The notes below the pieces were generated by a model that worked only from the letters and a program-made list of their open reading frames with translations, searched no databases and was not told the origin of the DNA. A stretch of 16,241 bases of DNA from a virus. Its lineage: Duplodnaviria; Heunggongvirae; Uroviricota; Caudoviricetes. The DNA lies in IMG/VR virus record IMGVR_UViG_2778261537_000016, positions 1-16,241 of that record; one strand, 5' to 3'. This document shows positions 1,018 through 16,241 of the stretch, piece after piece; within the stretch, counting starts at the first letter, position 1, and each line of letters starts with the position of its first letter. Both the position numbers and the translations under genes were made by a program.

Positions 1018-1047
1018 AAAAAATGCCCTCCTTTTGGAGAGCATTTT

Positions 1048-1067
1048 TACTGTATGTATAAACAGTG
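1048..1067. promoter_or_regulatory. LexA-box-like palindrome TACTGTATGTATAAACAGTG in the ASCH-int intergenic region
   Basis: CTGT (1050-1053), an 8-nt AT-rich spacer, then ACAG (1062-1065). It sits in the 79-bp gap just upstream of the int RBS (AAGGAGG, about 1025-1031) and start (1017). Confidence 0.45.
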
Positions 1068-1096
1068 TCAATATATGATGTTAAGAACCTTATACA

Positions 1097-1468
1097 TCAT
1101 AGGTATCGGTATGACTGCGGTGCTGTTATGTTGTCACCTAATGAACTTAGCAAACGTGGTTGTTCATAGACTTTCAAATCACCGATCTTAATCGCAAAGG
1201 CTTTATCCCTGCTTTGAAAGTAAGAATCAAAAAATTGTTTACTGATACCCGCATAACGGCTGGTTTTTTTCCAGACATTGCTGGGTTTATCTTCAATAAC
1301 ATCAGCAATATCGAACTCAGCAACAATCATCCCTACAGGCATTGTTGAATAAATAACCACAGATTTAACATCTGGATTTTTGAAGATTCCTTTTCTGAAC
1401 TCAAACTTTTTTGTTCCATCAAGAATCTTTTCAACAAATTCAGGTTTAATTGACAATAATACTTTCAT
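1097..1468 (-). CDS. ASCH-domain (PUA-like fold) protein
   Basis: 123-aa ORF. N-terminus MKVLLSIKPEFVEKILDGTKKFEFRK matches the characteristic ASCH start (MKxLSIKPEY/W..KI..G.K..E.R). Its start overlaps the end of the upstream gene by about 23 nt, and it ends 79 nt before int. Fold assignment is by eye. Confidence 0.6.
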   Translation of the reverse strand: MKVLLSIKPEFVEKILDGTKKFEFRKGIFKNPDVKSVVIYSTMPVGMIVAEFDIADVIEDKPSNVWKKTSRYAGISKQFFDSYFQSRDKAFAIKIGDLKVYEQPRLLSSLGDNITAPQSYRYL

Positions 1469-2531
1469 CTACAGCACCAAGTTTAATAATGTTGTCAAAT
1501 TCTCTGTCGGTCAATTTTAATACACCCCAATATGCTTGTGGATTTAAACCAACGTCTTCTATTAGTTTAGCACGAGTGATTCTTTTCGGTAAAGCAAGAT
1601 TATATGTAAAACTTATAATATAGGGGTATTTCTTTGTTTTATAAAAACTTCTCAATTCTGTTTCGGTAAATACACTATACCGAGCACAATATTTAATAAA
1701 ATCTTGCTCTGTTGGGAATGAAAAAATATCTCTAACATCTTCTACGACACATAGAGATGTAGCAACAGAACGATAATGAGCTGGACCTTTTTTATCTGAA
1801 GTTCGATAAATTACGAGAATGTCATGCATTTTTATATTTGCTACATCTTGCATGGCGCAGATGTAAATTTTTCTTATACTGTTAGCGTGAGACACGTCAG
1901 TAATAATATCTGGAGATTCAGTTATAAGTTTTGAGTCTGGGAATAGACGAGTATGAAAATCTGGATAAATAGATAGTAAGTATTTGTTTTCTTTATGTCT
2001 GTTGTTGATGAAGGGATAGTCGGCAAGAAGGTCTCCAGTGAGATCATCGGTGCTCATTTCTCTTACTAAAACATTTTCAATACCATTTTCAGATTCTTTT
2101 TTTCCGTATTTTATAAACCCATAATTTAAAAAAAGTTTAATCAGGTAATCATGCTTATCAAAAACTGTTACATATATATCGTTCACTTTTTCACTTAATG
2201 CGTGGTCAAATATCTTTTTCAAAAAACGTTGACCTCGCAATGTACCTTTCGTATTAAACTTAAAGGTCCCTATTTTGAGATGTTTTAAATCAGCCAATGA
2301 AGGGTTAACATCAGTAACCTCGCCATCTTCAATTTTTAGATACATGAATCCATCAATTGAATCATCCTCATTGTAGAGCACGTATGCTTTTTCTCTTAGA
2401 TCTTTTGCTTTTTTGTGAAACCATTCTACAAAACCAGCTTTATAGTCAGCTTTCAATGAGTCAAAAAAAGCATCGTCAAAGTTTACTTCATTAAAACTAA
2501 TGTGCTTTAAATTTTCCATTTTAATCTCCAT
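1446..2531 (-). CDS. GNAT-like (acyltransferase-fold) N-terminal domain fused to an uncharacterised C-terminal domain, possibly PUA/ASCH-like
   Basis: 361-aa ORF. Residues about 50-160 show a GNAT-like pattern (...GTLRGQRFLKKIFDHAL... IYVTVFDKHDYLIKLFLNYGFIKYG) with a degenerate motif A. The C-terminal 200 aa are unassigned; their beta-rich pattern loosely resembles the adjacent ASCH protein. A GGAG RBS precedes the second ATG, so the true start is probably 2519 (MENLK...). Visibly AT-rich. Confidence 0.5.
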   Translation of the reverse strand: MEIKMENLKHISFNEVNFDDAFFDSLKADYKAGFVEWFHKKAKDLREKAYVLYNEDDSIDGFMYLKIEDGEVTDVNPSLADLKHLKIGTFKFNTKGTLRGQRFLKKIFDHALSEKVNDIYVTVFDKHDYLIKLFLNYGFIKYGKKESENGIENVLVREMSTDDLTGDLLADYPFINNRHKENKYLLSIYPDFHTRLFPDSKLITESPDIITDVSHANSIRKIYICAMQDVANIKMHDILVIYRTSDKKGPAHYRSVATSLCVVEDVRDIFSFPTEQDFIKYCARYSVFTETELRSFYKTKKYPYIISFTYNLALPKRITRAKLIEDVGLNPQAYWGVLKLTDREFDNIIKLGAVDESIIVN

Positions 2532-2545
2532 GTCTCATTGAAAAG

Positions 2546-3625
2546 TCATTTTCTAAATTTAATGAAATTTGCGATTATATATAATGCTATTAACGATAGT
2601 GAACCGTAAATAAATAGGTTTTTATCTAAGCTTTCTGTTGGTACAAATTTCATAACAAATGTTATTGCTGCGCCGTAGAAAATGTATGCAAATATTTTGC
2701 TTAGTTTAGATTTCGTGTTTTTAAATTTTACGACGACAGAAAAATCATTAAGTCTCGAATTTATATCATTTGATATTTTCCAATGATATATCATTGGATC
2801 ATGAGACCCGAAAGATACGCCTTTGCTAAAATATTTTGTCCATGTCTCAGACTCTAAAATTCTTGAACCTTTATAATTTGAACCGGATGCGGAACAGTCA
2901 TCAACCATATCGCGGATTATAAAAATATGGCATTTCAAAGGGGTACAAGCGGCGCTAGCAAGAGTTGTGGCTATTTCGGAGGGCAGGTTTCTTTGCTCAT
3001 TAACCCTAAAATCGATGATATCAGACCGCTCAATACTACTCTTAAGGAAGAGATCTTTGGGGTAAAATGTTTTCACTAAAAGACCGATATCTTCTTTATT
3101 AATTTGGACACGGAATCTTAAATAGTGATTACAAGCATCTTCGGAAGAGAGACAATCCTTGAGTTTAAAGGCTAGTAAGGTGCCATTGTGGATTTTTGTT
3201 ATCTTGACTCTATGATCAAGCTCGCCGCCGCTAAATGATAACTTAGTATTAACAACTAAGTCTCCTTTATTGGCGAGCACTAATTTTAAATGTCTACCAT
3301 CTACTGTTTTAGTGTCAATAAGGTATTCATTGAAAACTGCAGTTACGAGATCTCTGCTTGATTCAAGGTTTTCACTAAGATCAGAAAAAAAATTATTTTC
3401 TTTTTCGAATGGTAGGAATATACATATTGCCCCATGCTTAGCAATGGTTTCATCTTCAGGCTTTTTGAATGTGATGCCAAAATCTAAATAGCCAAATTTA
3501 TGAGCGCTTATGTTCCAAAAATTAATATGCAACTCTTCAATGAAATTCTTATGTTCAGAGTTGTAGGTCGAGCCTGAACTACTATGATAATCCCTACACC
3601 CCCAGACCGCAAAACTTCGTGACAT
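2546..3625 (-). CDS. Membrane-anchored hypothetical protein: large N-terminal soluble domain plus C-terminal 2-TM hairpin
   Basis: ORF 2546..3685 (-). Start set at the ATG at 3625 (MSRSFAVWG...), which has AAGGAA about 7 nt upstream and does not overlap the repressor gene. The C-terminus has two hydrophobic helices (IFAYIFYGAAITFVMKF and LFIYGSLSLIALYIIANFI) and ends KFRK. No recognisable catalytic motif. Visibly AT-rich. Confidence 0.55.
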   Translation of the reverse strand: MSRSFAVWGCRDYHSSSGSTYNSEHKNFIEELHINFWNISAHKFGYLDFGITFKKPEDETIAKHGAICIFLPFEKENNFFSDLSENLESSRDLVTAVFNEYLIDTKTVDGRHLKLVLANKGDLVVNTKLSFSGGELDHRVKITKIHNGTLLAFKLKDCLSSEDACNHYLRFRVQINKEDIGLLVKTFYPKDLFLKSSIERSDIIDFRVNEQRNLPSEIATTLASAACTPLKCHIFIIRDMVDDCSASGSNYKGSRILESETWTKYFSKGVSFGSHDPMIYHWKISNDINSRLNDFSVVVKFKNTKSKLSKIFAYIFYGAAITFVMKFVPTESLDKNLFIYGSLSLIALYIIANFIKFRK

Positions 3626-3651
3626 ATCGATTTCCTTTGTCAGTAACGGTT

Positions 3652-4263
3652 TTAATTCAAATTGACCAGTAAGTAAAAATGGCATCGTGCAATTGGGTTT
3701 AGTTCACTGATAAAGCACTCAAATGAATGGCATGGATTGGGTGCTCCAACCTTGACTCTTCCTACAGGTATTCTCGTAAGTTCTCTAATACTCACTTTCC
3801 CTTCTATCTCTACCACCCACTTACCATCGGTCACTTCGTGAAAATGTTGATCAGCTAAATAGAGCTGATCTGAATCCATGATTACGATAGGTTTTCGCAA
3901 AGAATCTGGCACCAACGCTTTGTCGAGTAGGTAAAAATTTGAATCTAATAATTTCCCATCTTTGATTTTTTTTCGAGGTACGGAAAACAAATCAGCAAGA
4001 ACATTTTCATTTGCTGATTGGATACCTAAAGATTTTTGGGGTGGCTTAGGACTCCCAGTTCCAAATGAAAGCCACTCAACTGGGACGCCGGTCTCAATTG
4101 AGCACTTTATTATCCAGTCAGCAGGGAACACGTCTCTCATCCATCTGGTGCTCATCGTGCTTGTTGAAATCCCAAGCCGCTCACAAAGAGCCTTACGAGT
4201 ACTTACTCCGTAGGCCTCAAGCATACGAAGAATAGCCTCACGGCCACCATTGTTAAAATCCAT
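3652..4263 (-). CDS. CI-like immunity repressor (N-terminal HTH)
   Basis: 203 aa. N-terminal HTH-like segment (STRKALCERLGISTSTMSTRWMRD). AAGGAG sits 7 nt upstream of the ATG at 4263. It is divergent from an Apl/Cro-like gene across a promoter/operator region, the same layout as the 186 cI position next to int. No S24 Ser-Lys peptidase motif was seen. Confidence 0.7.
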   Translation of the reverse strand: MDFNNGGREAILRMLEAYGVSTRKALCERLGISTSTMSTRWMRDVFPADWIIKCSIETGVPVEWLSFGTGSPKPPQKSLGIQSANENVLADLFSVPRKKIKDGKLLDSNFYLLDKALVPDSLRKPIVIMDSDQLYLADQHFHEVTDGKWVVEIEGKVSIRELTRIPVGRVKVGAPNPCHSFECFISELNPIARCHFYLLVNLN

Positions 4264-4396: not shown

Positions 4397-4618
4397 ATGA
4401 CTCCTCACATTTCAATCACGTTGACTGTTCCTTCCGTATCAATTGAAAAATATAGCGAACTTACTGGGCTATCAATTGACACAATCAATGACATGCTAGC
4501 GGATGGCCGCTTGATACGGCACCGCTTACGCAAAGATAAAAAGCGCGAAAAAGTTATGATCAACATTGCGGCTATGACTGTCGATGCGCTCTCAGATTGC
4601 AACGTGTCCATCAATTAG
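4397..4618 (+). CDS. Apl/Cro-like small HTH DNA-binding protein
   Basis: 73-aa ORF, first gene of the rightward operon and divergent from the repressor. HTH-like segment YSELTGLSIDTINDMLADGRL. GGAA lies upstream of the ATG. Confidence 0.6.
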   Translation: MTPHISITLTVPSVSIEKYSELTGLSIDTINDMLADGRLIRHRLRKDKKREKVMINIAAMTVDALSDCNVSIN

Positions 4619-4650
4619 TTCGATTTTGAGACCGACTGAGGGCAATGACT

Positions 4651-5154
4651 ATGTTTGATTATCAAACCTCCAAACATGCGCACTTTGATGCGGCTTGCCG
4701 AGCATTTGCGATTGAGCACAATCTGGAAGATGTGGCCGCTGCTGTTGGCATGAGGCCACAGATCCTGCGCAACAAATTGAATCCAGCACAGCCACACCGT
4801 TTAACCTGTGACGAGCTTTTAGCTATTACGGATTACACCGAAGATGCGCGTTTACTGGATGGAATGCTGGGGCAGATTAACTGCCTTCCATCCGTACCAG
4901 TGAACAATGCCACAGAAGGCAACATGCAGTTGTGCGCACTGAGTGCCACAGCCTGTGTGGGCGCAATTGCTGGGGAAGCCGTATCCACTGGTCATATGAC
5001 CGCCGCCCGCCGTACACAAATTCTGGATCGCGCTCGCGATGCAATCCGTAGCTTATCCGTGCTGGCTTATACCGTTGAAAGCCGTATCCAGTCTGCGCCT
5101 GTTCTGGCCGCAGCGGTGGATTTGGTGACGGCTAACGCCACCGGCTTGATGTGA
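4651..5154 (+). CDS. cII: CII-like lysogeny-establishment regulator (phage 186 CII family)
   Basis: ORF 4645..5154. The sequence MFDYQTSKHAHFDAACRAFA...LRNKLNPAQPH closely resembles my recollection of the 186 CII N-terminus, and the length (167-169 aa) matches. Start is at 4645 or 4651; GAGGG lies just upstream. Confidence 0.7.
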   Translation: MFDYQTSKHAHFDAACRAFAIEHNLEDVAAAVGMRPQILRNKLNPAQPHRLTCDELLAITDYTEDARLLDGMLGQINCLPSVPVNNATEGNMQLCALSATACVGAIAGEAVSTGHMTAARRTQILDRARDAIRSLSVLAYTVESRIQSAPVLAAAVDLVTANATGLM

Positions 5155-6278: not shown

Positions 6279-6512
6279 ATGCACATGACACGTCAGGATT
6301 TACCCGCAACAAAATCAGGCACTGACCTGCTGGCTATGCTCACCCAAGCCACTCAGGAAGGTAAAGCCGCTGCTGCTGATCTGTGTTCCACCCGTCTGGA
6401 TAAGCTGGCCACCCATGCAGCCAATGAAGGTTTAAGCGCAACGGAAATCATTGAGTTAATCCGCGAAGAAGCCGCAGCGATTTGCAGTAAAGGCGGTGCA
6501 GCATGGCAGTAA
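6279..6512 (+). CDS. Hypothetical small protein (about 77 aa)
   Basis: Internal ATG of ORF 6129..6512 with AAGGA 7 nt upstream (MHMTRQDLPATKSG...). The 5' extension to 6129 overlaps the preceding gene and is probably not translated. Its end overlaps the dam start by 10 nt. Confidence 0.45.
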   Translation: MHMTRQDLPATKSGTDLLAMLTQATQEGKAAAADLCSTRLDKLATHAANEGLSATEIIELIREEAAAICSKGGAAWQ

Positions 6513-7372
6513 AAACTCCGCTTAAGTGGGTGGGCAGCAAAGCCCGCCTTATGCCGCAGTTGCTTCCCCATCTGCCAGAGGGTAAGCGCCTGATAGAACC
6601 TTTTGCCGGTTCCTGTGCTGTCATGATGAATACGGATTATGACGAGTATCTGATAGCTGATGTGAATCCTGACCTTGTTAATCTGTATAAGACGATGGCT
6701 TATCACACTGATGCATTGCTCATTGAGCTGGAGGCTTTATTTTCTGCCGGTTCATTAGGTGATGAAGAAAACAGGGCAATTTTCTATTACGCGGTGCGTG
6801 ATGCCTTCAACCAGTCCGGCAAATCCTTTGGTTCTGAATCTGTGGAAGCTGCGGCGCGTTTTCTTTATCTGAATCGTCACTGCTTCAATGGCCTGTGCCG
6901 ATACAATCGCCGTGGTCAGTTCAATGTTCCGTTTGGTAAGTACAAAAAAACCTACTTTCCTGCTGATGAAATCCGCGCTTTTGCAGAAAAAGCGAAACGT
7001 GCAACGTTCATTACTGCCAACTATTCAGAAACGCTTGATTTGGTAAGGGACGGGCATGACGTTGTTTATTGTGATCCGCCTTACCTGACTGATACCGACA
7101 ATTTCACCGCTTACCATGAGCGCGGTTTTTCGCACATGGATCAGGGACGGCTGGCGCGTAAGCTGCGTCGCCTGGCTGAGCGCGGGATTAAGGTTGTCGC
7201 GTCAAACAGCGATCTGGAAATGGTGCATTACCTGTATTCAGGATTCGAAGCGGTTCGGGTCAATGCGCCACGCAGTGTGGGTGCAGCAGCTGCAAGCCAG
7301 AAAGTGGCCGCAGAGCTCATTCTGAAGTCACCTGCTAACCCGGCGATCGACGTTCGGGCGGTGGGGGCATGA
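6503..7372 (+). CDS. dam: DNA adenine N6-methyltransferase, Dam/D12 class
   Basis: 289 aa. Collinear with E. coli Dam motifs: LKWVGSKARL (cf. LKWAGGKYPL), EPFAGS (AdoMet binding), FLYLNRHCFNGLCRYNRRGQFNVPFGKYKK, and catalytic DPPY (VVYCDPPYL). No restriction endonuclease gene is adjacent. Confidence 0.9.
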   Translation: MAVKTPLKWVGSKARLMPQLLPHLPEGKRLIEPFAGSCAVMMNTDYDEYLIADVNPDLVNLYKTMAYHTDALLIELEALFSAGSLGDEENRAIFYYAVRDAFNQSGKSFGSESVEAAARFLYLNRHCFNGLCRYNRRGQFNVPFGKYKKTYFPADEIRAFAEKAKRATFITANYSETLDLVRDGHDVVYCDPPYLTDTDNFTAYHERGFSHMDQGRLARKLRRLAERGIKVVASNSDLEMVHYLYSGFEAVRVNAPRSVGAAAASQKVAAELILKSPANPAIDVRAVGA

Positions 7373-7581
7373 TGACGGAAATTATCACCGGCATTTATGC
7401 CTTGTTTGCCTGTATTACTTTCGCCTTTCTCTTATGGGACGAATGCCAGGACGAATTTGATCACGATGCTGAGGACTTAGGGTTAATCACTCTGAGTGCG
7501 GTTTTTTGGCTACCACTGGTAGCGGCTGTACTTGTGGCTTTCCTGATTGATTTCTGGCGTAAGTGGGTTAACCGTGGTTGA
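7369..7581 (+). CDS. Small predicted membrane protein (70 aa, two TM helices)
   Basis: The start overlaps the dam stop (ATGATGA). Two hydrophobic helices (IITGIYALFACITFAFLLW and LSAVFWLPLVAAVLVAFLIDFW). A GGGGG RBS lies upstream. Confidence 0.5.
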   Translation: MMTEIITGIYALFACITFAFLLWDECQDEFDHDAEDLGLITLSAVFWLPLVAAVLVAFLIDFWRKWVNRG

Positions 7582-7582
7582 T

Positions 7583-9598
7583 ATGCTGGAGCCTGGCCAA
7601 CACCAGACCGTCAATGCCTGGCGGCGTGAAACCTTTGCGCTTGGTACCCCGTCAGATGCAACGATCACAGAACGCCGTTTGTGGGCTGTAAACCCACAGG
7701 ATTATGAATGGCGTTCCCAGTACCTGCATGAAATACCCGACTGGTTAGCCGGGTATTTTGGCAACCGTTACGAAAAGCTGCTGGCTGGTCGTGACGGGCG
7801 TCGCCGTGCCAATACGTTCCTGCGCAAAACTATCGGCGGGAATGTATTGCCACGTCTGCGCAAAGTGGCTGCACGTTACAAACTGGCCGCTGATGCACTT
7901 GATCTTCCTTTCGGTAAGTCGCTGGAGCGACTGCCGTCACTTGACCGCCCGGAACTCAAAAAACTGGCTGGCCAGATATCTGGCTGGATCTCCCAGTCAC
8001 TGTATGACTTTACCGATCAGTTTGTGGGCAGCACTGACGATGCCGCAGAGCTGCGCCGCCGTACGCTGGAGTCTTACCGCCATTTATGCACGTGTTCCCT
8101 GATGCTGAACAATCAACCGCCGTACTGGGCTGAACATGAAGCTAATGGCGGGCAACTGGAAACGCGTAAGGCTGAATCCGGGATCCTCCGCATGATGGCA
8201 CCTGAATGGTGGTATCTGCGTCTTAAGCGGGCGCGGGATATGCAGCGTGAGCATATGGCCATTGCAGTGGGGCAAGTACAGAAAGCGGCCAGCGCTTATG
8301 TGTCCCGTAAAACCTTGGGCGAATGGATAGACCAGAAAAAGCGGAACCTTGAGTTCTTCAAAAAGTTTGACCTGCTGAATGATGAAGGGCTGCGTATTGC
8401 ACTGGACAGCATGGTGCATCGCAGCGTTGCTAATCCGGCGATCCGTCGCTGTGAGCTAATGGTAAGAATGAGAGGATTTGAAGATATGGCCAATGGAGAA
8501 GGACTGGCCGGTGAGTTTTACACCATCACCGCGCCATCGCGATTCCATGCGGTACACAGCAAAGGGGGCTTTGTTTCACAGTGGGATGGCTGCACTCCGC
8601 AGGATACCCAGCGCTACTTATGTGGTGTATGGGCGAAAGCCCGCGCCGCTATTTCCCGTGCAGGTATCCATGTTTTTGGTTTTCGTGTAGTAGAGCCTCA
8701 CCACGATGGCACACCGCACTGGCACATGCTGCTTTTTATGCGTCCTGGTGACGTGGATACCGTGCGCGATATTCTTTGTTATCACGCCAGAATTACTGAC
8801 TCCGAAGAACTGCAAACGCCAAACGCGCTAAAGGCACGTTTCCATGTTGAAGCCATCGATCCCGCTAAAGGCTCGGCTACGGGTTACATAGCCAAATATA
8901 TATCCAAAAACATTGATGGTTTTGCGCTGGATGGTGAACAGGACGACGAAACAGGGGAGAACCTACGGGACATGGCCAAGTCCGTTTCTGCATGGGCTTC
9001 ACGCTGGCGCATTCGCCAGTTTCAGCAGATTGGTGGTGCGCCGGTGACTGTCTGGCGCGAGTTGCGCCGGTTACGTGATCAGGTACTGACTGACCGAAGA
9101 ATGGATTCGGTTCTGGCTGCTGCGGATGTTGGTGACTGGGCGGCGTACACCCAGGCGCAGGGTGGCGCACTGGTTTCCCGCCGTGACCTGGTTGTTCGTC
9201 TGGCTTATGAAATCACGGAACAGGGTAATGAATACGCAGAGGACGTGCAGCGCGTTCAGGGTGTCTATTCTCCATTGGTTCCAGATTCAGCGGTATGTAC
9301 GCGCTTGGTGAAGTGGCAGAAGGTTGCGAAGTTGGCCGAAGCGCCAGCGGAGGCGGGTTTTTCTGGCGGCAGCGCCGCCCCTTGGAGTTCTGTCAATAAC
9401 TGTACGGAGGGTGGAACCCGCAGACGGTTAAAACTGGAATTGCGAAGCCGGGGTTTTGAAGGTTCTGACGATGAAATAGCCATTCTCATGCGGGGCAGTG
9501 GTTTGAGATTTGGCCAGGCGGCGTTGATTTACCGTAATGGCAGGTTACAGGAGACACGAAACGAGCCAATGCACGAGCTGTGGCCGGGGTGGTTGTAG
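7583..9598 (+). CDS. Rolling-circle replication initiator endonuclease (P2 gpA / 186 A family)
   Basis: The ORF tool starts at a TTG at 7547; the first ATG is 7583, directly after the upstream stop. HUH metal-binding motif HHDGTPHWHMLLF and twin active-site tyrosines in GSATGYIAKYISKNIDG, as in P2 A. Length about 670 aa. Confidence 0.85.
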   Translation: MLEPGQHQTVNAWRRETFALGTPSDATITERRLWAVNPQDYEWRSQYLHEIPDWLAGYFGNRYEKLLAGRDGRRRANTFLRKTIGGNVLPRLRKVAARYKLAADALDLPFGKSLERLPSLDRPELKKLAGQISGWISQSLYDFTDQFVGSTDDAAELRRRTLESYRHLCTCSLMLNNQPPYWAEHEANGGQLETRKAESGILRMMAPEWWYLRLKRARDMQREHMAIAVGQVQKAASAYVSRKTLGEWIDQKKRNLEFFKKFDLLNDEGLRIALDSMVHRSVANPAIRRCELMVRMRGFEDMANGEGLAGEFYTITAPSRFHAVHSKGGFVSQWDGCTPQDTQRYLCGVWAKARAAISRAGIHVFGFRVVEPHHDGTPHWHMLLFMRPGDVDTVRDILCYHARITDSEELQTPNALKARFHVEAIDPAKGSATGYIAKYISKNIDGFALDGEQDDETGENLRDMAKSVSAWASRWRIRQFQQIGGAPVTVWRELRRLRDQVLTDRRMDSVLAAADVGDWAAYTQAQGGALVSRRDLVVRLAYEITEQGNEYAEDVQRVQGVYSPLVPDSAVCTRLVKWQKVAKLAEAPAEAGFSGGSAAPWSSVNNCTEGGTRRRLKLELRSRGFEGSDDEIAILMRGSGLRFGQAALIYRNGRLQETRNEPMHELWPGWL

Positions 9599-9676: not shown

Positions 9677-9696
9677 TACTGTATGAATATACAGTT
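9677..9696. promoter_or_regulatory. LexA (SOS) box, TACTGTATGAATATACAGTT
   Basis: CTGT-N8-ACAG with an AT-rich spacer, a near-perfect match to the LexA consensus TACTGTATATATATACAGTA. It lies about 20-40 nt upstream of the small ORF at 9714 and its AGGAGG RBS (9708-9713). Confidence 0.75.
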
Positions 9697-9713
9697 ATTC
9701 TGTTTTTAGGAGG

Positions 9714-9932
9714 ATGCTTGTGCAGGATTTGTTTATGGAAACTATCGCATTGCAGCGGATTGCGTTGTTTACCAGGTTGATCGCCAAAAGTAATTGCACT
9801 GGCTGTGAAAAGGACATTGCACTTGCCTGGCTAAGCGAGCTGACTTCAGATCTGGAAAGTAAACTTGATGAATATGAAAGTAAAAACCCCCGGGAAGGGG
9901 GCTTATCAGGCGGCGGGAGTCGCTTTCAGTAG
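9714..9932 (+). CDS. SOS-controlled small protein at the tum position (candidate Tum-like antirepressor)
   Basis: 72-aa ORF just downstream of the LexA box and a strong AGGAGG. That RBS abuts the ATG at 9714, so the GTG at 9720 may be the real start. In 186 the LexA-repressed tum gene sits downstream of A in the same place. No sequence homology to Tum was verified, and the ORF runs through the convergent terminator and overlaps the ogr-like 3' end. Confidence 0.4.
   Translation: MLVQDLFMETIALQRIALFTRLIAKSNCTGCEKDIALAWLSELTSDLESKLDEYESKNPREGGLSGGGSRFQ
9882..9902 (-). terminator. Rho-independent terminator for the ogr-like gene
   Basis: On the minus strand a GC hairpin (GCCCCC-TTCCC-GGGGG) is followed by TTTTT, immediately after the ogr-like stop at 9906-9908. 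Confidence 0.6.
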
Positions 9933-10225: not shown

Positions 10226-11287
10226 TCATGCCGCACCCTTATCCGTTGATTCTGTGTAACTTAAATCAAAGTTAAGGTGCAGCCTTTCCGGTATTTCGGG
10301 ATCGTTGTTCACCGCAGTCATAAACCGGCGCTGAATGGGTGCTATTTCGCTTTTCTTGTAAATCCTTTCCGCCTTTTCAACATCCCCCAGGCCGGCAGTG
10401 TTCTGCGGGACAATTCCGGCCAGCCCTGCGGGAAAGCGGTGTGCGTTGAGAATGTCCTGTGCGCTGATGTTTTTGATGTTGGCAAATTCATCTTTTGCAG
10501 AGATATCCCCCATTTCAATAAACTTGATCGCATCCCCATCCCCGCCTGGAATGTTCACCAGAATGGTGGAGAAGTTGCCGATACCTTTGCTGTCCCGCAG
10601 CTGCTGTTCAATCTCTTCTTCCATTTCATCCGTCATGCTGGGATCGCGCGTGTAGAGAATGCCGCCAGTATGGGCGCCGTTGTGGTAGTAACGGCGGCGA
10701 AAAATCACGGCTTCACTGTTAAGCAATGCCGAGTGTACGCCGCCGATATAGTCGGGCAGCCCGTAAATATGCTGCTGCGGGTCGTACATCTTGATAAAAA
10801 TGATATCTTCTTGCGGCCATACCTGCGGTTCACCGTCCTGCAATACCACATAATCGCCGGGCTGGTCTGCGGCGTTGTCCCTGACTTTACGGCGGCGAAT
10901 ATACAGGCCGGGTAAAGGTTCCAGGGCAATCACATCTCCCCATCCGTTGCGGATTTTGCCAATCGCAATATCCCCGAAGGTTGTATAGTCAAACGCTGCG
11001 GCTTCCAACTGGTCGTAAGTCAGGCCACCGCCCAGATAATCAGACACAATCATATTTTTCCGGGCGTGGATAATGCCGCCATGCTGACCGTTCAGATTGA
11101 TAAGCTGTGCCAGTGCCAGCCGGTCAATCGGCTGGGTAAAGTGATCGGCGGCATTGTCGTACCAGATGTCGCGGTAATCCGTGCCGGTGGTCAGGACGGG
11201 TTCCGGTTTGCCGAATGTGATGATGCTCATTTTTTTGGATTTATCGCCGCGCGGGTTGCGCTTAACGAAGCGGTTTTTTTTACTCAT
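10226..11287 (-). CDS. Portal protein (P2 gpQ family)
   Basis: 353 aa. Collinear with P2 Q as I recall it: MSKK..., ITFGKPEPVL (cf. FTFGEPVPVL), LNSEAVIFRRRYYHNGAHTG (cf. LNESATLFRRKYYENGAHAG), LRDSKGIGNF, KDEFANIKNISAQDILNAHRFP, GLGDVEKA. Its start overlaps the terminase stop by 4 nt. Confidence 0.9.
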   Translation of the reverse strand: MSKKNRFVKRNPRGDKSKKMSIITFGKPEPVLTTGTDYRDIWYDNAADHFTQPIDRLALAQLINLNGQHGGIIHARKNMIVSDYLGGGLTYDQLEAAAFDYTTFGDIAIGKIRNGWGDVIALEPLPGLYIRRRKVRDNAADQPGDYVVLQDGEPQVWPQEDIIFIKMYDPQQHIYGLPDYIGGVHSALLNSEAVIFRRRYYHNGAHTGGILYTRDPSMTDEMEEEIEQQLRDSKGIGNFSTILVNIPGGDGDAIKFIEMGDISAKDEFANIKNISAQDILNAHRFPAGLAGIVPQNTAGLGDVEKAERIYKKSEIAPIQRRFMTAVNNDPEIPERLHLNFDLSYTESTDKGAA

Positions 11288-12441
11288 GCAGCCTCTTTCC
11301 TTACACCCCAGCGGGATTTCGGTTTATTTTCGTAGTTGAGTGGTTCGTTATGCAGGGCGTGGGTAATTGCCCAGAACGCCTCTGCGTGGCCAGTGTCCTG
11401 GCTGCGGTCAGCGACAAATGTCATGGCGTTACCACTTTGCGTGGTGGTGCGGCGTACAGCCATAAAGCTGGCCGGGATCTCTTTCAGGTTCTTGTCCCAT
11501 TCAATACGCTGACTTTCCACCACGTCCGCCGCTTTCAGTACCAGCTGATTTTTCGTGTTCATGTCGTAACGAATGGCGACGGCCACGCGCATGGCAAAAT
11601 GCTGGATGTTGTCAAAAACACCCTGGCCAATACCGGTAACGTCCACTCCCAGATAGGTGAAGTTGTATTTTTTAAACAGGAGTTCGATCTGCCTGGCCTG
11701 ATAGCGGAAGTTCATGCCCTTCCAGTTAATGACCTTCAGAACGCGGAATTTCTCTGCGGCATACATCGGCGGGGCAATAATCACAAAACACGACAAATCG
11801 CCGCTACGTGCCGGGTCAAAGCCTCCCCATACTGGCCTGTCACCGAATGGCCGCGCAGCGTCCGGGTTGTGATCCTGCCAGGTGTCCACCTCCACGCCGC
11901 AGGCTTCCAGGTCTGAAAAGCTGAATACGGAATCCTTGCTGTCCACGAAGACGCACATATAGAGCATGTTGAAGGTGGCCGTGTTGTAGCGGTTGCGCAG
12001 CTTCTCGATGTTGGCCAGGTTGAAGCCACCTGCAATGGCATCCTCCATCGTGATGACATAGCGCCACTGCCCATCCGGGCAAAGCCGTCCGCCGTCGCGC
12101 ATGTCATCAAAAGACGGGAACTGGGCGGCCGCGCGTTTTTTGCTGCCCTGTTTCCATTCCTCACCCGTCCAGAACGGGTAAGCCTGGTGCGTTTTGGCCG
12201 ATGGTGTTGAAAAGTAGGTGGTGCGCCATTTGTCATGGGTGGCCATTGCGCTGGCCACTTCGTTAAGCCTGGCGAAGTTAGGCACCCAGAAATATTCGTC
12301 ACAGTACAGGTGGCCACTGTAGGACTGGGCTGTGTTCTTGTTGGTTGAGAGAAAACGCAGTTCAGCGCCGTTGCTGAGGCGGATCGGGTTGCCGGTCAGC
12401 GTTATGCCAAAATACTGTTCTGCAATGTTGACGATGTAAGA
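11284..12441 (-). pseudogene. Terminase large subunit (P2 gpP family), 5'-truncated; N-terminal region including the expected Walker A is absent
   Basis: ORF 11284..12285 plus an in-frame open extension upstream. The translation (...NGAELRFLSTNKNTAQSYSGHLYCDEYFWVPNFARLNEVASAMATHDKWRTTYFSTPS...) matches the central and C-terminal part of P2 P, including a Walker-B-like YCDEYFW. The frame hits a stop at about 12472-12474 with no ATG and no Walker A, and AT-rich non-coding DNA follows. Confidence 0.75.
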
Positions 12442-12517
12442 TAGGATGTACCGTTTTTTAAAAACAACTAGTTATACACTTTGTGGGAGCCTATTGGGAA
12501 CCTGAAGTTTTGCTCTT

Positions 12518-12537
12518 TCTATTCATATCTATTCATA
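12518..12537. repeat. Perfect tandem direct repeat TCTATTCATA x2
   Basis: Read directly at 12518-12527 and 12528-12537, in the AT-rich spacer between the truncated terminase and the next module. Confidence 0.6.
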
Positions 12538-12562
12538 AAGCACCATTTGCTGCCTTATCTGA

Positions 12563-12589
12563 TTGACCAAAAACAACCGCGGTTATAGA
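12563..12589 (+). promoter_or_regulatory. Candidate sigma70 promoter (TTGACC ... TATAGA) for the 12645 operon
   Basis: TTGACC at about 12563-12568 and a TATAGA-like -10 about 15-17 bp downstream. GAGG RBS lies 5 nt before the ATG at 12645. Weak call by eye. Confidence 0.3.
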
Positions 12590-12644
12590 CTTTGCTCCAA
12601 ATAGCTAAGGCTATTGCTTAGTAAGTAAAACAGTTGAGGTTGCC

Positions 12645-13184
12645 ATGAATCCGTTTAACGCCATTACTTTTGCTGCATTGTGCGGGCCTCTGGCTTGTCC
12701 TGCTGCTATGGCGCAGGAGTTCATCATCCAGCCAGCCCCTGTGATTGCTAAACCTTTTGAGTACTCTCCTTCTGTTGAGGAATTCTCACGCAGAATGGAA
12801 GAGGGTAAGGAGATCTTGCAAAAGTTAACAATTGCAGCAGATGACTACTATATCTGTTTGATTGATCTTAATAGCCAAGATGCTCGCGAGTTTGTTTCCA
12901 AAAACGGGACAGATACGACAGAGGCATGCGAAATGTTCCTGCGTGCTTTTGAAGAAGAAGTGAAGCGTACAATTGAATCGCCTCTGCCTGAATTTATCAG
13001 GTCAGAACTGAAGGTTTACTGGCGTCATATTGCTAAAGCTCGCTCATCTGTCACTCGCCTTAACAATTACATAAAGAGCATATTTAAAGAAACTGTTACG
13101 TTTAGCGGGCGCGCGGATCTTGCTGGAATTGCAGCACTAGCTAGTCACACATCAAATAAGCTAAAATCGATGCAATTTCACTAA
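12645..13184 (+). CDS. Hypothetical protein with signal-peptide-like N-terminus (179 aa); upstream partner of the YafO-like gene
   Basis: N-terminus MNPFNAITFAALCGPLACPAAMA/QE is hydrophobic with an AxA-type cleavage site but lacks a positively charged n-region. The rest is charged and helical with no recognisable domain. GAGG RBS. Stop is 16 nt before the next gene. Confidence 0.5.
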   Translation: MNPFNAITFAALCGPLACPAAMAQEFIIQPAPVIAKPFEYSPSVEEFSRRMEEGKEILQKLTIAADDYYICLIDLNSQDAREFVSKNGTDTTEACEMFLRAFEEEVKRTIESPLPEFIRSELKVYWRHIAKARSSVTRLNNYIKSIFKETVTFSGRADLAGIAALASHTSNKLKSMQFH

Positions 13185-13200
13185 CCGATAGCGGACGACC

Positions 13201-13635
13201 ATGCATCTAGAAGTCTCTATTAATCCAGAAACTAGAGCTGAATTTTTTGATGAAGTTTTTCTCAAATTCCCGGAGCTAGAGTCTTCTATCATTGATGATT
13301 TCAAGAGATACAAAGCAACCGGTGAGCTTCCGCATTATTTCGGTAGGGACGTTGCGTATACTCAGCCCTATGGTGCTTTTCGGGCTGGGTTGATGCATAT
13401 CCATCTTTGTCTACCGCCAAACAAGTTTCCCGAGAAACTTCCACAACCGGATAGGGTCTGCAAGAAAGGTGATCCTGATAATGATGCTTGTCTTGTGTAT
13501 GTCCAAGGTGAGCTTTATGAGAATAAATATTCACTCATTGCTATTATGTATCCCGATGCACATGAAAAAGCAAGAAAACATGATGTGATGAGCTATCTGG
13601 CGCGAATTGCCCAGAATTATAAAGATGAAAACTAA
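13201..13635 (+). CDS. YafO-family type II toxin-like protein (ribosome-dependent mRNA interferase family)
   Basis: 144 aa. Collinear with E. coli YafO as I recall it: YK..G.LP..FGRD..Y, HIHL, D.A(C/H)LVY.QG, LIAI..P..H..AR. The gene is followed immediately by a strong terminator. Confidence 0.6.
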   Translation: MHLEVSINPETRAEFFDEVFLKFPELESSIIDDFKRYKATGELPHYFGRDVAYTQPYGAFRAGLMHIHLCLPPNKFPEKLPQPDRVCKKGDPDNDACLVYVQGELYENKYSLIAIMYPDAHEKARKHDVMSYLARIAQNYKDEN

Positions 13636-13655
13636 CCCGCCGAAGCGGGTTTTTT
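13636..13655 (+). terminator. Rho-independent terminator (CCCGC-CGAA-GCGGG followed by TTTTTT)
   Basis: Perfect 5-bp GC stem with a tetraloop and a T6 run, directly after the stop at 13635. It lies between convergent genes and may also act on the minus strand. Confidence 0.8.
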
Positions 13656-13661
13656 GTGAGA

Positions 13662-13934
13662 TTAGTTATTTATTTTCCTATTTGTTCTTACCCTCTCCCA
13701 TTCAATTCTGCCTTCTTCACGCCGTTTATCTATATATTCAGCAAGATCCTGAATGTTGATGCAGCGCTTTGCTTTCTGTGATGTACCAACACGATAAGTC
13801 GGGATCGGCAATTGGCATGCATTTGCTTTCGCTTCTGCTGTGTTAGGGCTCATACCGAAATACTTTTGGCATACAGCTGACAGCTCAATGTTTGGGGTAT
13901 TGAATTCAGCCATCAGTAAAAACAAGGTGTTCAT
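13662..13934 (-). CDS. PrtN-family (pyocin activator-like) transcriptional regulator
   Basis: ORF 13662..13961 (GTG per the ORF tool); the ATG at 13934 has GGAG upstream. The sequence FGMSPNTAEAKANACQLPIPTYRVGTSQKAKRCINIQDLAEYID matches the conserved PrtN core as I recall it. Confidence 0.65.
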   Translation of the reverse strand: MNTLFLLMAEFNTPNIELSAVCQKYFGMSPNTAEAKANACQLPIPTYRVGTSQKAKRCINIQDLAEYIDKRREEGRIEWERVRTNRKINN

Positions 13935-13970
13935 AATTTTCTCCATCAAAACCGGCTGCACCCGGGAAAA

Positions 13971-14543
13971 TCATAATTCTGTGCTGGTGGCAGGAATTAG
14001 TTTCTGCCAGATAGCGGAAACATATTTTGCCTGATGACGGGCATCAGCCAGGGCGTTGTGCCGTTCGCCATCGAAAGGCATGTCCATTTTTGGGTCGAAT
14101 CCGATGGAACGCCCAAGCGTAACGATCGTGCGTACATCGTGGTCATTCCAGTACGCCCACGGGCAGATTTGTCCTGCTCGCTCGTAAGCTCCACGTAAAA
14201 TTACGTTGTCGAAGGTGGCCCCGTTACCCCAGACTTTTAAATATTTTGTATTGTCTGCATGCTGATTAATGAAATGGCTCAGTTCAGAGAGTGCATCGCT
14301 GATCGACAAAGTATCATCAATACAGATTGCAGCTCGTGCTTCAGAGCTCTGTTTCAACCACCACAGGATGGTATCGCCGTCAGGTGTAGCTCCTTGCTTC
14401 ATAGCACTGTCCAGGCTAACAACCGTATAGAATTCTTGTCCGATGTCTCCGGTTTCTGGAGTGAAGAACACCGCGCCAATGGAAACGATCGGTGCATCCT
14501 TATTTTTCCCCATCGTCTCAAGGTCGATCATTAAGTTGTTCAT
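13971..14543 (-). CDS. DnaQ-like 3'-5' exonuclease (DEDDh family)
   Basis: Exo I motif IDLETMG, Exo II WGNGATFD, Exo III HNALADA. The ATG at 14543 has a GAGGTGA RBS; the ORF tool's 14546 is a GTG. Its start overlaps the upstream stop by 1 nt. Confidence 0.8.
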   Translation of the reverse strand: MNNLMIDLETMGKNKDAPIVSIGAVFFTPETGDIGQEFYTVVSLDSAMKQGATPDGDTILWWLKQSSEARAAICIDDTLSISDALSELSHFINQHADNTKYLKVWGNGATFDNVILRGAYERAGQICPWAYWNDHDVRTIVTLGRSIGFDPKMDMPFDGERHNALADARHQAKYVSAIWQKLIPATSTEL

Positions 14544-15352
14544 CACTTCACCTCTTGTGATGGTTTTGCTGCAAAATACTCGATACCTTTATCCCAGATA
14601 GATTTTATGGTCGACCACGTGACTGGCACTTTAATTTCAATACGTCCGCTCCCGTCACAGGTATCGCAATCATCATCGCCAAAGCATTCCAGGCAGCTTA
14701 TAAACGTAGTTTCTGAAAATTCACCGGATAGCGCCCCCTTAGCGCCGTTCTCGGCTGTTAGTCTCTTCGGCACCATAACCCAACCATCCGGAGTTACCGG
14801 AGAGTTGCCAGACAGTGCGTTCTGCAATCGTTCCAGCTTAACGTATTCCTGAACCCTGTTTCCGTCGCACGCCTGAAGCCATTGCACAGCCTTTTGCGCA
14901 TCAGTGTGAAAGGCACAAGTGCGACCGTCATCAAATTGCATTTCGTAGAGGTCAGCAACCTGTTTAAACTGCGTTTGTGGCAACTTGTAAGCCTGGCTTG
15001 CAGGTACGGCACCATAGAGCATGGCAGCGCGGCAGGCGTTCCAGCCTTCATCAAAACCGACTATGCCATTATTTAAAGACGGACGAGCATCTGGCACCAC
15101 CGGCACTGGCTTGGCTATATATAGCGGCTGAACATACCAGCCCTTTGATAACCAACTGTCAGCAATGTTTTTACTCCTGGTTATTGCCGGAATACCTAAG
15201 CCATTGTCTGAATGCAGCCATGCCACCGGATCCTCTTCCAGCGATGCCAGAGCAATTTCATAAGCACGGCGCTCAACATTGTCTCGCACGTCCATGCTGC
15301 TGATTCGTTCTTTGATTTCTTTAATCAGTTCTTTATCGGTAAATGTGGTCAT
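14543..15352 (-). CDS. Hypothetical prophage early protein (269 aa) with a C-terminal Cys-rich motif
   Basis: Operon member with coupled start and stop. C-terminal CLECFGDDDCDTCDGSGRIE resembles a small zinc-ribbon (CxxC...CxxC). No other motif recognised. Confidence 0.55.
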   Translation of the reverse strand: MTTFTDKELIKEIKERISSMDVRDNVERRAYEIALASLEEDPVAWLHSDNGLGIPAITRSKNIADSWLSKGWYVQPLYIAKPVPVVPDARPSLNNGIVGFDEGWNACRAAMLYGAVPASQAYKLPQTQFKQVADLYEMQFDDGRTCAFHTDAQKAVQWLQACDGNRVQEYVKLERLQNALSGNSPVTPDGWVMVPKRLTAENGAKGALSGEFSETTFISCLECFGDDDCDTCDGSGRIEIKVPVTWSTIKSIWDKGIEYFAAKPSQEVK

Positions 15353-15714
15353 TATGCTCCAGCCTCCGGTGCTTTTGGCATTACTGCCCAGTGAGTGATG
15401 TTGACGTTTTCAAGGTCCCCGACCTGAAATGTCCACTGCCATTCTCCGGTTTCTTTTTGCCCCCATGTATACCAGAGAGAACGCCAGCCAATCAGCCAGC
15501 CTTCTCCATTAGCATCAAATAACAGAACACTTTCATTCGCTGGCGGCAGTTCAGCTGACACTGGTATTACTTTGTTTTCCAGTGCTGCACATTTAGCTTC
15601 AAGCGCATTAAATTTACGCACCAGGTATTCAGCATCCGTTTCATTCACTTTCAGATCTCGCGGTACACATTTCCCGCGAAGAAATCCTTCCATTTCGAAA
15701 ACATTCATGCGCAT
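15352..15714 (-). CDS. Hypothetical prophage early protein (120 aa)
   Basis: ORF with GGAG upstream of the ATG at 15714. Trp-rich C-terminal half (GWLIGWRSLWYTWGQKETGEWQW). It overlaps the upstream gene by 10 nt. Confidence 0.5.
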   Translation of the reverse strand: MRMNVFEMEGFLRGKCVPRDLKVNETDAEYLVRKFNALEAKCAALENKVIPVSAELPPANESVLLFDANGEGWLIGWRSLWYTWGQKETGEWQWTFQVGDLENVNITHWAVMPKAPEAGA

Positions 15715-16241
15715 TTGCGTAACTCCGATAATTCGTTAAAGCGTTCCATAAACATCCCGTAGGCATGGCCTGGAGCCAGTGGAATCACGTTGAACATCTC
15801 TGTTGCCGGGATACCTTCCAGTACAGGCCAGAAAGAGCCATCATCAAGCCCGAGATCGCGGCGTTCGGTTGCCAGCATGATGAGATCGGCATATTTCACG
15901 GGCGTACTCATAACCGGTGGTAACCCGTATTTCTCACGGATTACGGCGTCTATTTTTTCTTCCATCCGTTTATAGTCAGGAAGAAGGCGTTTCAGTGGTG
16001 CGGGAATGTCCTGGCAATACGCTTCTGTTGCATCATGCATTAACGCTTCAAAAGCAAATTCCTGCGGCACCAGCTGGCTGCAAAGAACCGCATGTTGGGC
16101 GACGCTGTAGAAGTGCGAAAGATGACCGGCAAAGCGACAGATATTTGAAAGGGAAACCGCGATATCGTTAATATCGATGTCGTCTTTATTTATCCTGTCA
16201 TAATAAAAATGCTTCCCGGAAAAAGTTTTAATAAATGACAT
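15705..16241 (-). CDS. HD-domain phosphohydrolase, YfdR-like 5'-deoxynucleotidase
   Basis: 178-aa ORF whose ATG is at the window edge (16239-16241). HD-domain signature (H...HD...D): SVAQHAVLCSQL, ALMHDATEAYCQDIP, ADLIMLATERRDLG. Length and N-terminus match my recollection of E. coli prophage YfdR. The upstream promoter is outside the window. Confidence 0.7.
   Translation of the reverse strand: MSFIKTFSGKHFYYDRINKDDIDINDIAVSLSNICRFAGHLSHFYSVAQHAVLCSQLVPQEFAFEALMHDATEAYCQDIPAPLKRLLPDYKRMEEKIDAVIREKYGLPPVMSTPVKYADLIMLATERRDLGLDDGSFWPVLEGIPATEMFNVIPLAPGHAYGMFMERFNELSELRKCA

Follow-up and report, generated by a model that had tools for sequence, protein, structure and literature searches.

A probable LexA operator in the predicted integrase promoter of a 186-like prophage lineage

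Introduction

Phage 186 is the model of its family, and in this phage the integrase gene int is co-transcribed with the repressor gene. To our knowledge, 186 has one known entry point for the SOS response, the LexA-controlled antirepressor Tum. At SOS promoters, the ordinary mode of repression is a LexA dimer that lies over the core promoter and excludes RNA polymerase. This mode of control also operates on recombinase genes, namely, at the intI promoters of integrons, where a LexA box overlapping the promoter represses a tyrosine recombinase gene and couples recombination to SOS. In phage lambda, int is served by a dedicated CII-activated promoter, pI, and the fate of the int mRNA is set by the promoter from which it originates, through the sib hairpin, which is present in read-through RNA only.

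Activation of int by the CII protein of lambda is documented (PMC7708051), and the interval between cI and int is a hotspot for cargo and defence genes in P2-related phages (PMC9122126, PMC13586616). Neither the word LexA nor the word SOS occurs in the two papers on this hotspot. In the literature, of which our coverage was incomplete, we found no int promoter of P2/186-like phages described as controlled by LexA or CII, and an earlier description is thus possible.

Here, we analyze a stretch of viral DNA of 16,241 nucleotides (IMG/VR record IMGVR_UViG_2778261537_000016), hereafter the window, in which a LexA-box-like palindrome had been noticed immediately upstream of int. Judging from the sequences of the window and its relatives, the palindrome is very probably a real LexA binding site inside the int promoter of a 186-like prophage lineage. 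The lineage that carries this box appears to control int differently from textbook phage 186.

Results

Gene layout of the window prophage

The window covers the left part of a 186-type prophage, with int on the minus strand. The int gene (1-1017; ATG at 1017-1015, stop codon at 3-1) encodes a tyrosine integrase of 338 aa with the Pfam domains Int_N and Phage_integrase, which is 55% identical to the Int protein of 186. Three cargo genes, all on the minus strand, are located between cI and int: the ASCH/PDC-M11B gene (1097-1468), the PDC-M11A gene (1446-2531), and an open reading frame (ORF) of 379 aa with unknown function (2546-3685). The cI gene itself (3652-4263, minus strand) encodes a 186-type CI repressor with the Pfam domains Phage_CI_repr and Phage_CI_C. 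On the plus strand, apl/cox (4397-4618, PHROG 575) is followed by cII (4645-5154), which belongs to the CP76 family (Pfam CP76) and encodes the presumed activator, and then by fil, a D12 methylase gene, and replication gene A (7547-9598). After gene A, the plus strand carries a 72-aa ORF (9714-9932), ogr, the portal gene, and a terminase gene that is cut at about position 12285. The DNA beyond this point contains genes unexpected in a P2-type phage and the structural genes are lost; by its gene content, the window prophage is a remnant.

A high-scoring LexA box upstream of int

The palindrome occupies positions 1048-1067 (20-mer TACTGTATGTATAAACAGTG; no strand assigned), with an exact CTGT-N8-ACAG core at 1050-1065. 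It is located, as originally described, between the ASCH stop codon (TGA, 1099-1097, minus strand) and the int Shine-Dalgarno (SD) sequence, and both its coordinates and its description proved correct. The box agrees with the published LexA consensus, TACTG(TA)5CAGTA, at 17 of 20 positions (PMC6590174), and 17 of its 20 positions are identical to the operator of the 186 promoter p95.

The exact core is found twice in the window against 0.18 expected occurrences, a count that 2 of 200 dinucleotide shuffles reach, but the core with one mismatch shows no enrichment in the window. [quoted passage not shown] With this check, which had been proposed along with the palindrome, the box obtained a low HI of 3.34. 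The same matrix gave 5.16 for recA, 5.64 for sulA, 2.2 for umuDC, and 2.0 for the annotated 186 p95 LexA site; on this scale, the box is thus better than those of recA or sulA. Among 300 simulated Markov-1 windows, the best HI had a mean of 13.9 and a minimum of 5.67, so that none reached the score of the box. A chance palindrome is ruled out by the 20-mer score, the simulations, and the conservation described below.

Only one other 20-mer in the window scores comparably, namely, a second LexA box at 9677-9696 (TACTGTATGAATATACAGTT; HI 2.36; no strand assigned), whereas the third best 20-mer has an HI of 12.5. This second box lies upstream of the 72-aa ORF, at the position of p95-tum in 186. 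In a BLASTP comparison, the 72-aa product did not match 186 Tum; it matches only PHROG 698, a family of unknown function, and its likeness to the N-terminus of Tum is apparent by eye only. The product encoded at the tum position is, on its sequence, not demonstrably Tum.

Two other roles for the DNA around the box were considered and rejected. A part in attP or an Int arm site is ruled out, given that att is located 3' of int in this family (annotation of 186; attL of 4LV2017) whereas the box is found at the opposite, 5' end of the gene, at a distance of 1 kb. Control of a plus-strand ORF of 45 hydrophobic aa (1054-1191) was likewise dismissed; this ORF was not taken as a gene, as it overlaps the ASCH gene in antisense and most of its length falls in DNA without conservation across loci.

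A predicted promoter, Pint, around the box

A promoter scan of the int strand detected the hexamers TTGACA (-35; 1066-1071, minus strand) and AAAAAT (-10; 1043-1048, minus strand) separated by 17 nt, with 10 of 12 matches to the consensus. The LexA box occupies the 17-nt spacer of this promoter, denoted Pint, which is identified by consensus match only, 50 nt before the int ATG. The transcription start of Pint, at about 1036-1035, is predicted from the hexamer geometry only. The -35 hexamer is supported by conservation as well as by the scan: in the TTGAC sequence, T is present in 89 of 89 relatives, G in 87 of 89, A in 89 of 89, and C in 72 of 89. The -10 hexamer is TTAAAT in most relatives.

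Read along the int strand, the module comprises a CII-type operator, a near-consensus -35, the LexA box, a weak -10, a hairpin that includes the SD sequence, and the ATG; in the window, these elements follow each other as ATGTATA-N13-CATATAT, TGACA, CTGTTTATACATACAG, T, AAAAAT, GCTCTCC, AAAA, GGAGGGC, A, TTTTTT, ATG. The whole module is housed in the gap of 80 nt between the ASCH gene and int.

Conservation of the box and its absence from textbook phages

Int protein searches yielded 47 loci from species-representative genomes and, from IMG/VR, the best 80 of 464 confirmed stretches, and several isolated phages are also part of this sample. The 120 loci with a full-length int start gave 97 distinct 130-nt upstream sequences, and 93 of these 97 contain the box (counted in relatives at an HI up to about 10, with a median of 5.8), with the 20-mer starting at -49 to -52 from the ATG. 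The CTG and ACAGT motifs are invariant in all 93 boxes, several central positions are two-state, and the DNA 5' of the module is unrelated between loci. In most of the 120 loci, Int is at least 92% identical, and the conservation partly reflects shared ancestry. The box is also kept in relatives from Serratia, Yersinia, Hafnia, Pantoea, Erwinia, and Winslowiella with 52-72% Int identity, and in a Vibrio phage with 50% Int identity, in which the upstream genes are reversed and a box with an HI of 2.6 is located 35 nt before int. Invariant triplets combined with a variable centre and scrambled flanks make up the pattern that is predicted for a protein-binding site.

Two explanations other than LexA binding bear on these data. 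The box could be a functionless chance or relic palindrome that is conserved through recent common ancestry of the int 5' region, as the high Int identity in most sampled loci and the lack of one-mismatch cores in excess would allow. However, the score of the full 20-mer lies well beyond the range of the simulations, relatives with 50-70% Int identity retain the box although their adjacent hairpin and all upstream DNA have been exchanged, and CTG and CAG stay constant against a varying spacer; we regard this explanation as close to refuted and the least probable of those considered. Scarcely more credible is the possibility that one of the phage proteins CI, Apl/Cox, or Int, and not LexA, recognizes the palindrome, whose likeness to an SOS box would then be superficial. 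Palindromes are indeed common among the sites of phage regulators, but the conserved letters are exactly the LexA contact triplets around an AT-rich, variable centre, the same motif is present at the position of the LexA-controlled p95 of 186, and the box is kept across loci that differ in neighbouring regulatory DNA and cargo. As to CI in particular, the operators of the switch region in the window (ACTCCAAATGAG / CTCATTTGGAGT) are repeats unrelated to the box, and a CI operator is ruled out. Binding by LexA, by comparison, is supported at the sequence level by the low HI, the position in the promoter spacer, and the conserved contact triplets CTG/CAG, in line with the original prediction.

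On a neighbour-joining tree of Int, the box-bearing members form a large clade, a clade of Pantoea and Erwinia, and the Vibrio phage, with boxless phages between them. The interspersed boxless phages imply a history of gains, losses, or recombination. In 103 of 113 loci, cI is located upstream of int on the same strand, with a gap of 426-2994 nt and variable cargo. In ESSI2_ev129, the complete module is present without cargo, in a gap of 77 nt straight after cI, and the module is therefore independent of the presence of cargo.

The arrangement in the window had also been predicted not to be the textbook one for P2/186-type int. This view is borne out, given that int of the window is preceded by an 80-nt gap with its own predicted promoter module, unlike in 186 and P2. 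The LexA box is absent upstream of int (best HI >15) in 186, SEN8 (Fels-2 type), Cartapus, SI22, P2, ST512phi13.6, ESSI2_ev015, YenM_324, and YenM_201.16. In 186, the stop codon of cI overlaps the int ATG, and in SEN8, Cartapus, ST512phi13.6, ESSI2_ev015, and YenM_324, the upstream gene is 0-3 nt from int. Short gaps precede int in YenM_201.16 and SI22, and a gap of 69 nt in P2. The upstream gene overlaps int by 1-4 nt in K139/Kappa, Aeromonas LPM4, and HP2, and Vibrio PE001 has a gap of 16 nt. The module as a whole, that is, box, CII-type repeat, and hairpin, is missing at int of 186, the Fels-2-type phages, P2, K139, and HP2.

The box-bearing lineage is widespread. A 141-nt query comprising the module and the 5' end of int matched about 1,100 of 5,426 complete E. 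coli genomes (about a fifth), and in about 1,000 E. coli genomes the match covers at least 80% of the query. The lineage is also represented in many genomes of Klebsiella, Enterobacter, Citrobacter, Serratia, Yersinia, and Pantoea.

A CII-type operator abutting the -35 hexamer

At the left edge of the conserved region, the related loci carry an inverted repeat, ATGTWTG-N12/13-CAWACAT, the right half of which abuts the -35 hexamer. The 186 CII site that activates pE, taken from the GenBank annotation of 186, is GATGTTTGGAAACCTGAAAATCAAACAT, that is, ATGTTTG-N13-CAAACAT ending at -35. At Pint, none of the 91 sequences has more than one mismatch in the right half-site, and 76 of 91 stay within this limit in the left half-site, with a spacer of 12 nt (42 sequences) or 13 nt (33 sequences); perfect half-sites are present, for example, in the versions of E. 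coli MB20 and ESSI2_ev129; a spacing of 12 is thus found in about half of the loci, versus 13 in 186. In a control, the same test shifted by 35-65 nt upstream succeeded in 3 of 364 cases, versus 76 of 91 for the left half-site. The spacers between the half-sites are unrelated among loci. Across 660 kb of related loci, the motif was detected 174 times, in 82 loci just upstream of int, in 90 loci at the far-upstream position of pE, and only twice elsewhere. The distance from the half-site to the -10 is 21 nt at 186 pE and 21-22 nt at Pint, the start of which is predicted.

In the window, the left half-site, ATGTATA (family consensus ATGTWTG; 1091-1097, minus strand), overlaps the ASCH stop codon by 1 nt, and the right half-site, CATATAT (consensus CAWACAT; 1071-1077, minus strand), abuts the -35. 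The right half-site has a T where 89 of 89 anchored relatives have a C. As a whole, ATGTATA-N13-CATATAT has two mismatches to the W-degenerate pattern, a level that is equalled at another place in the window, and this copy is not significant alone. The remnant state of the prophage may explain the decayed site. The pE-type CII operator of the window prophage itself, ATGTTTG-N13-CAAACAT at the start of cII (4651-4677; no strand assigned), matches the 186 half-sites exactly.

The CII protein encoded in the window is 45% identical to 186 CII (E 4e-53), and the recognition-helix motif Q-x-LRNKLNP is conserved between the two. The published cII- mutations V36/Q37 of 186 fall in the helix that is conserved as Q-x-LRNKLNP (PMC7708051). 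Taken from these sequence comparisons, Pint very probably binds CII, and SOS would then probably not be the sole input of Pint, with a probable CII operator on the same promoter. In the window copy, with its degenerate CII half-sites and its truncated prophage, LexA control is the better supported input.

The poor -35 that is typical of pE is absent at Pint, which has TTGACA or TTGACC. For this reason, we do not class Pint as a pE-type promoter, but only as probably also responsive to CII. A LexA dimer in the spacer should stop RNA polymerase even when CII is bound, which weighs against an action of CII at Pint when an undamaged cell is infected. Pint could integrate the two inputs as an OR, given its good -35, or as an AND, in which case full activity would require damage.

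An alternative reading is that Pint is essentially a CII-dependent establishment promoter, the counterpart of lambda pI in the 186 family, and that the LexA box does no more than silence basal transcription in the lysogen. The contribution of SOS would in that case be small, and Int for excision would be produced via CII after derepression by Tum. The CII-type operator is conserved as well as the box and has the geometry of pE, and after SOS the lytic promoter yields CII anyway in the biology of 186 (PMC7708051). However, the consensus -35 should fire without an activator once LexA is gone, the box equals those of recA and sulA in strength and has invariant contact triplets, and int of Vibrio PE002 has the box with no CII repeat recognisable by eye. 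We therefore consider an essentially CII-dependent Pint to be distinctly unlikely and favour a promoter that LexA represses and to which CII probably contributes.

A hairpin over the int Shine-Dalgarno sequence

Between the -10 and the int ATG, the RNA of the window can form a hairpin, AAAAAUGCUCUCC-AAAA-GGAGGGCAUUUUU, followed by further U (1019-1048, minus strand). Its GC core pairs positions 1042-1036 with 1031-1025, and the 3' arm contains the int SD sequence GGAGGG (1031-1026, minus strand). The predicted fold has an energy of -17.1 kcal/mol (z -6.2), and none of 200 shuffles folds as well. The hairpin has the form of an intrinsic terminator, GCUCUCC-AAAA-GGAGGGC followed by A and U6. A simple terminator scan did not list it, which we attribute to an A/U extension of the stem that absorbs the U-tract.

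Such a stem-loop is present between the -10 and the ATG in every lineage, with the SD sequence in its 3' arm. The hairpins were assessed by folding each sequence separately, as a MAFFT alignment puts the sequence classes out of structural register. Among 50 distinct box-to-ATG segments, at least 8 unrelated classes of arm sequences were distinguished, with arm pairs such as GCUCUCC/GGAGGGC, AGCCCUCA/UGAGGGCU, CUCUCCUAAA/UUUAGGAGAG, CCCCCUU/AAGGGGG, GUAGCCC/GGGCUAC, and AUACCCU/AGGGGUAU; in a few of the classes, the stem is weak, with z values of about -1 to -2. Most changes within the main class produce wobble pairs or weaken the stem instead of compensating, and the support for the hairpin therefore comes from the wholesale replacement of arms between classes.

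In the window and most relatives from Enterobacteriaceae, 5-8 U follow the stem, as in a terminator. Yersinia, Serratia, Pantoea, and ESSI2_ev129 have no U-tract, but their hairpin still pairs the SD sequence. What the lineages share is therefore the masked ribosome site. The 5' arm falls, in each class, within the short stretch that separates the -10 from the predicted start. For the window, the SD sequence has a probability of being unpaired of 0.00 in read-through RNA versus 0.56 in RNA from the predicted start, and in 11 of 12 classes, clearly in about 10, this probability is greater in the transcript of Pint itself. From these models we infer promoter-specific masking of the SD sequence, which rests on the predicted start; a start a few nucleotides further upstream would bring part of the hairpin into the transcripts of Pint as well.

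A simpler reading holds that the hairpin is a plain intrinsic terminator of the cI-cargo operon, without a role in int translation, and that Pint is adjacent to it by chance. The 5-8 U after the stem in the window and most Enterobacteriaceae relatives are what this reading expects. It is at odds with the lineages that lack the U-tract while keeping the SD sequence paired, and with the position of the 5' arm between the -10 and the predicted start in every class, and it appears to us possible but rather doubtful. A terminator-like, SD-sequestering structure just upstream of the int ATG fits the original proposal that int expression is independent of read-through from the repressor operon.

Discussion

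We consider it likely that the palindrome is the LexA operator of an autonomous int promoter, Pint, of one 186-like (Peduoviridae) prophage lineage, which would be repressed by LexA, probably activated by CII, and would insulate int from the cI-cargo operon. In the lysogen, LexA bound between the -35 and the -10 would hold Pint off, and transcripts of the cI-cargo operon that reach int would fold the hairpin and either terminate at the U-tract or carry a masked ribosome site, so that little Int would be made. DNA damage would lead to cleavage of LexA, and Pint and the second LexA-controlled promoter, located before the ORF at the tum position, would open together. The transcripts born at Pint are predicted to start within or after the 5' arm, such that the hairpin would be lost and the RNA would be translatable. 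CII made from the lytic promoter, both in infection and after derepression, would probably boost Pint as it does pE, and a CII-boosted Pint would supply Int for integration, as pI does in lambda.

As far as the sequences tell, the feature comprises more than an isolated SOS box, namely, also a CII-type repeat and an SD hairpin, and is a variation on known kinds of control. In its fullest form, the model is a three-layer gate, in which a CII-activated and LexA-repressed promoter is nested in a terminator/anti-SD hairpin, making int independent of the cargo between cI and int, with only the transcripts of Pint translatable and read-through silenced. The module would then be a 5'-end counterpart of lambda pI and sib that evolved independently in the 186 family, and prophage excision would be a direct output of SOS in roughly one in five complete E. 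coli genomes. We put forward this extended version tentatively, with clearly less confidence than the LexA-controlled promoter itself.

If the model is correct, a large sister lineage of 186 possesses a private, damage-inducible int promoter that also answers to a phage activator. Int would be synthesized at other times, which would affect when the prophage excises and how often it is cured spontaneously. The cI-int defence hotspot could take up arbitrary cargo with integration and excision undisturbed. Excision under antibiotic-induced SOS might still be possible for remnants such as the window prophage, even with its structural genes gone. As a natural promoter, the module would be compact, with one input each for an activator and a repressor and a translation switch that is specific to the promoter.

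The closest known relative of the LexA part of the module is p95 of 186, the LexA-repressed promoter that drives Tum. It belongs to the same phage family, its operator (TACTGTATGTTTATACAGTA) is identical to the window box at all but 3 of 20 positions, and the operator overlaps the promoter core, as at Pint; an equivalent site is present in the window at 9677-9696. However, p95 controls an antirepressor whereas Pint would control int, and int of 186 has neither a box nor intergenic space. With respect to CII, the counterpart is 186 pE: in both promoters, inverted 7-mers (ATGTTTG/CAAACAT in 186) are located about two helical turns apart, the right half ends at the -35, and the distances to the -10 differ by no more than 1 nt. 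The two promoters differ in the -35, which is poor at pE and matches the consensus at Pint, in the LexA operator, which Pint carries in its spacer and pE lacks, and in their transcripts, with pE transcribing cI, and int behind it, and Pint predicted to transcribe int only; in addition, the half-site spacing at Pint is 12 in about half of the loci. As in the cI-int hotspot of P2-related phages, variable cargo lies between the repressor gene and int, here over 426-2994 nt; in K139/Kappa, by contrast, int overlaps the upstream gene glo, which leaves no room for a promoter of its own.

Beyond the 186 family, Pint shares with the intI promoters of integrons a LexA box over the promoter of a tyrosine recombinase gene. 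The integron recombinase belongs to another family and another element and serves cassette shuffling, and its promoter has neither a phage activator site nor an SD hairpin. With pI and sib of lambda, the module shares the combination of a private, activator-dependent int promoter and a promoter-specific fate of the mRNA, assembled from unrelated parts: the CII proteins of lambda and 186 are unrelated, a LexA site is missing from pI, and the sib hairpin is located 3' of int and acts through RNase III, whereas the hairpin in the window precedes int and would, by prediction, affect termination and ribosome binding.

Cargo genes and the int promoter module

In this 186-like prophage, the cargo between cI and int (window 1097-3685) carries PDC-M11A and PDC-M11B, a candidate defence pair according to PADLOC, which encode, respectively, a 361-aa acetyltransferase-like protein (PHROG) and a 123-aa ASCH protein. 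This pair is also found in lambdoid coliphages, where it is labelled GevA|GevT in one record. For the 379-aa ORF in the same cargo (2546-3685), no match was identified in Pfam, PADLOC or PHROGs. The final cargo gene ends in a stop codon (window 1097-1099) that shares 1 nt with the left half-site of the predicted CII site, an inverted repeat abutting the -35 element of the predicted int promoter, Pint, and this half-site is the exact start of sequence homology across the related loci. Thus, the junction with the cargo in the cI-int hotspot falls at the edge of the promoter module.

In distant relatives from Pantoea and Winslowiella (loci L029-L031), an additional GC-rich hairpin followed by a T-tract (for example, GCCCGC-TCA-GCGGGC TTTTT) lies directly upstream of the left CII half-site, approximately 95-110 nt upstream of int, and the ATG-adjacent hairpin lacks a T-tract. 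The two structures seem to divide termination and SD masking between them.

Pint itself is interrupted in a related locus with a 98% identical Int (IMG/VR contig IMGVR_UViG_2588253736_000002; L059, 130-3950), where two tandem copies of an approximately 1.9-kb element are inserted, on the opposite strand, exactly between TTGAC and ACTGT, splitting the predicted LexA box off from the -35 element and the predicted CII site. Each copy encodes a 495-aa reverse transcriptase (PF00078), which suggests a group II intron.

On the plus strand, a 45-aa hydrophobic ORF (window 1054-1191; MYKQCQYMMLRTLYIIGIGMTAVLLCCHLMNL...) has its start within the predicted LexA box and lies antisense to the 3' end of the ASCH gene. 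The product superficially resembles SOS-controlled type I toxins, but this stretch of DNA is not conserved across the related loci.

State of the prophage

The prophage is truncated in the 11284-16241 region. The terminase large-subunit ORF (11284-12285, minus strand) lacks roughly the first 100 profile positions, and from approximately 12645 onward the expected P2-type genes are absent and the window encodes a YafO-family toxin (13201-13635), an Rv2179c-like exonuclease (13971-14546) and a DUF551 protein (15352-15714), so that the element is a remnant adjoining other mobile DNA. The early lytic operon includes a D12-class N6-adenine DNA methyltransferase gene (6503-7372, plus strand), lying after the cII/fil region and before replication gene A.

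Other predicted LexA boxes

In the P2-related Vibrio phage 10N.286.45.F8_PE002 (L142, 1090-1200; Int 50% identical), int is a stand-alone unit, with divergent genes upstream, and is preceded by a near-consensus predicted LexA box (TACTGTTTTTATATACAGTT) 35 nt ahead of the int ATG; no clear 186-type CII repeat was identified there by eye. Because this stand-alone int has a LexA box, LexA control of int, as predicted from sequence, may appear repeatedly, wherever the repressor operon and int are not coupled.

The window contains a second, strong predicted LexA box, TACTGTATGAATATACAGTT (heterology index 2.36), 17 nt downstream of which begins a 72-aa ORF (box and ORF, 9677-9932). The sole match of this ORF is to PHROG 698, of unknown function, and a BLASTP comparison with the Tum antirepressor of phage 186 yielded no match. 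Judged by eye, the ORF resembles the N-terminal part of Tum, without the DinI-like C-terminal part. The map position of the box and the ORF, past gene A and beside ogr, is that of p95-tum, the LexA-repressed promoter and tum gene of phage 186.
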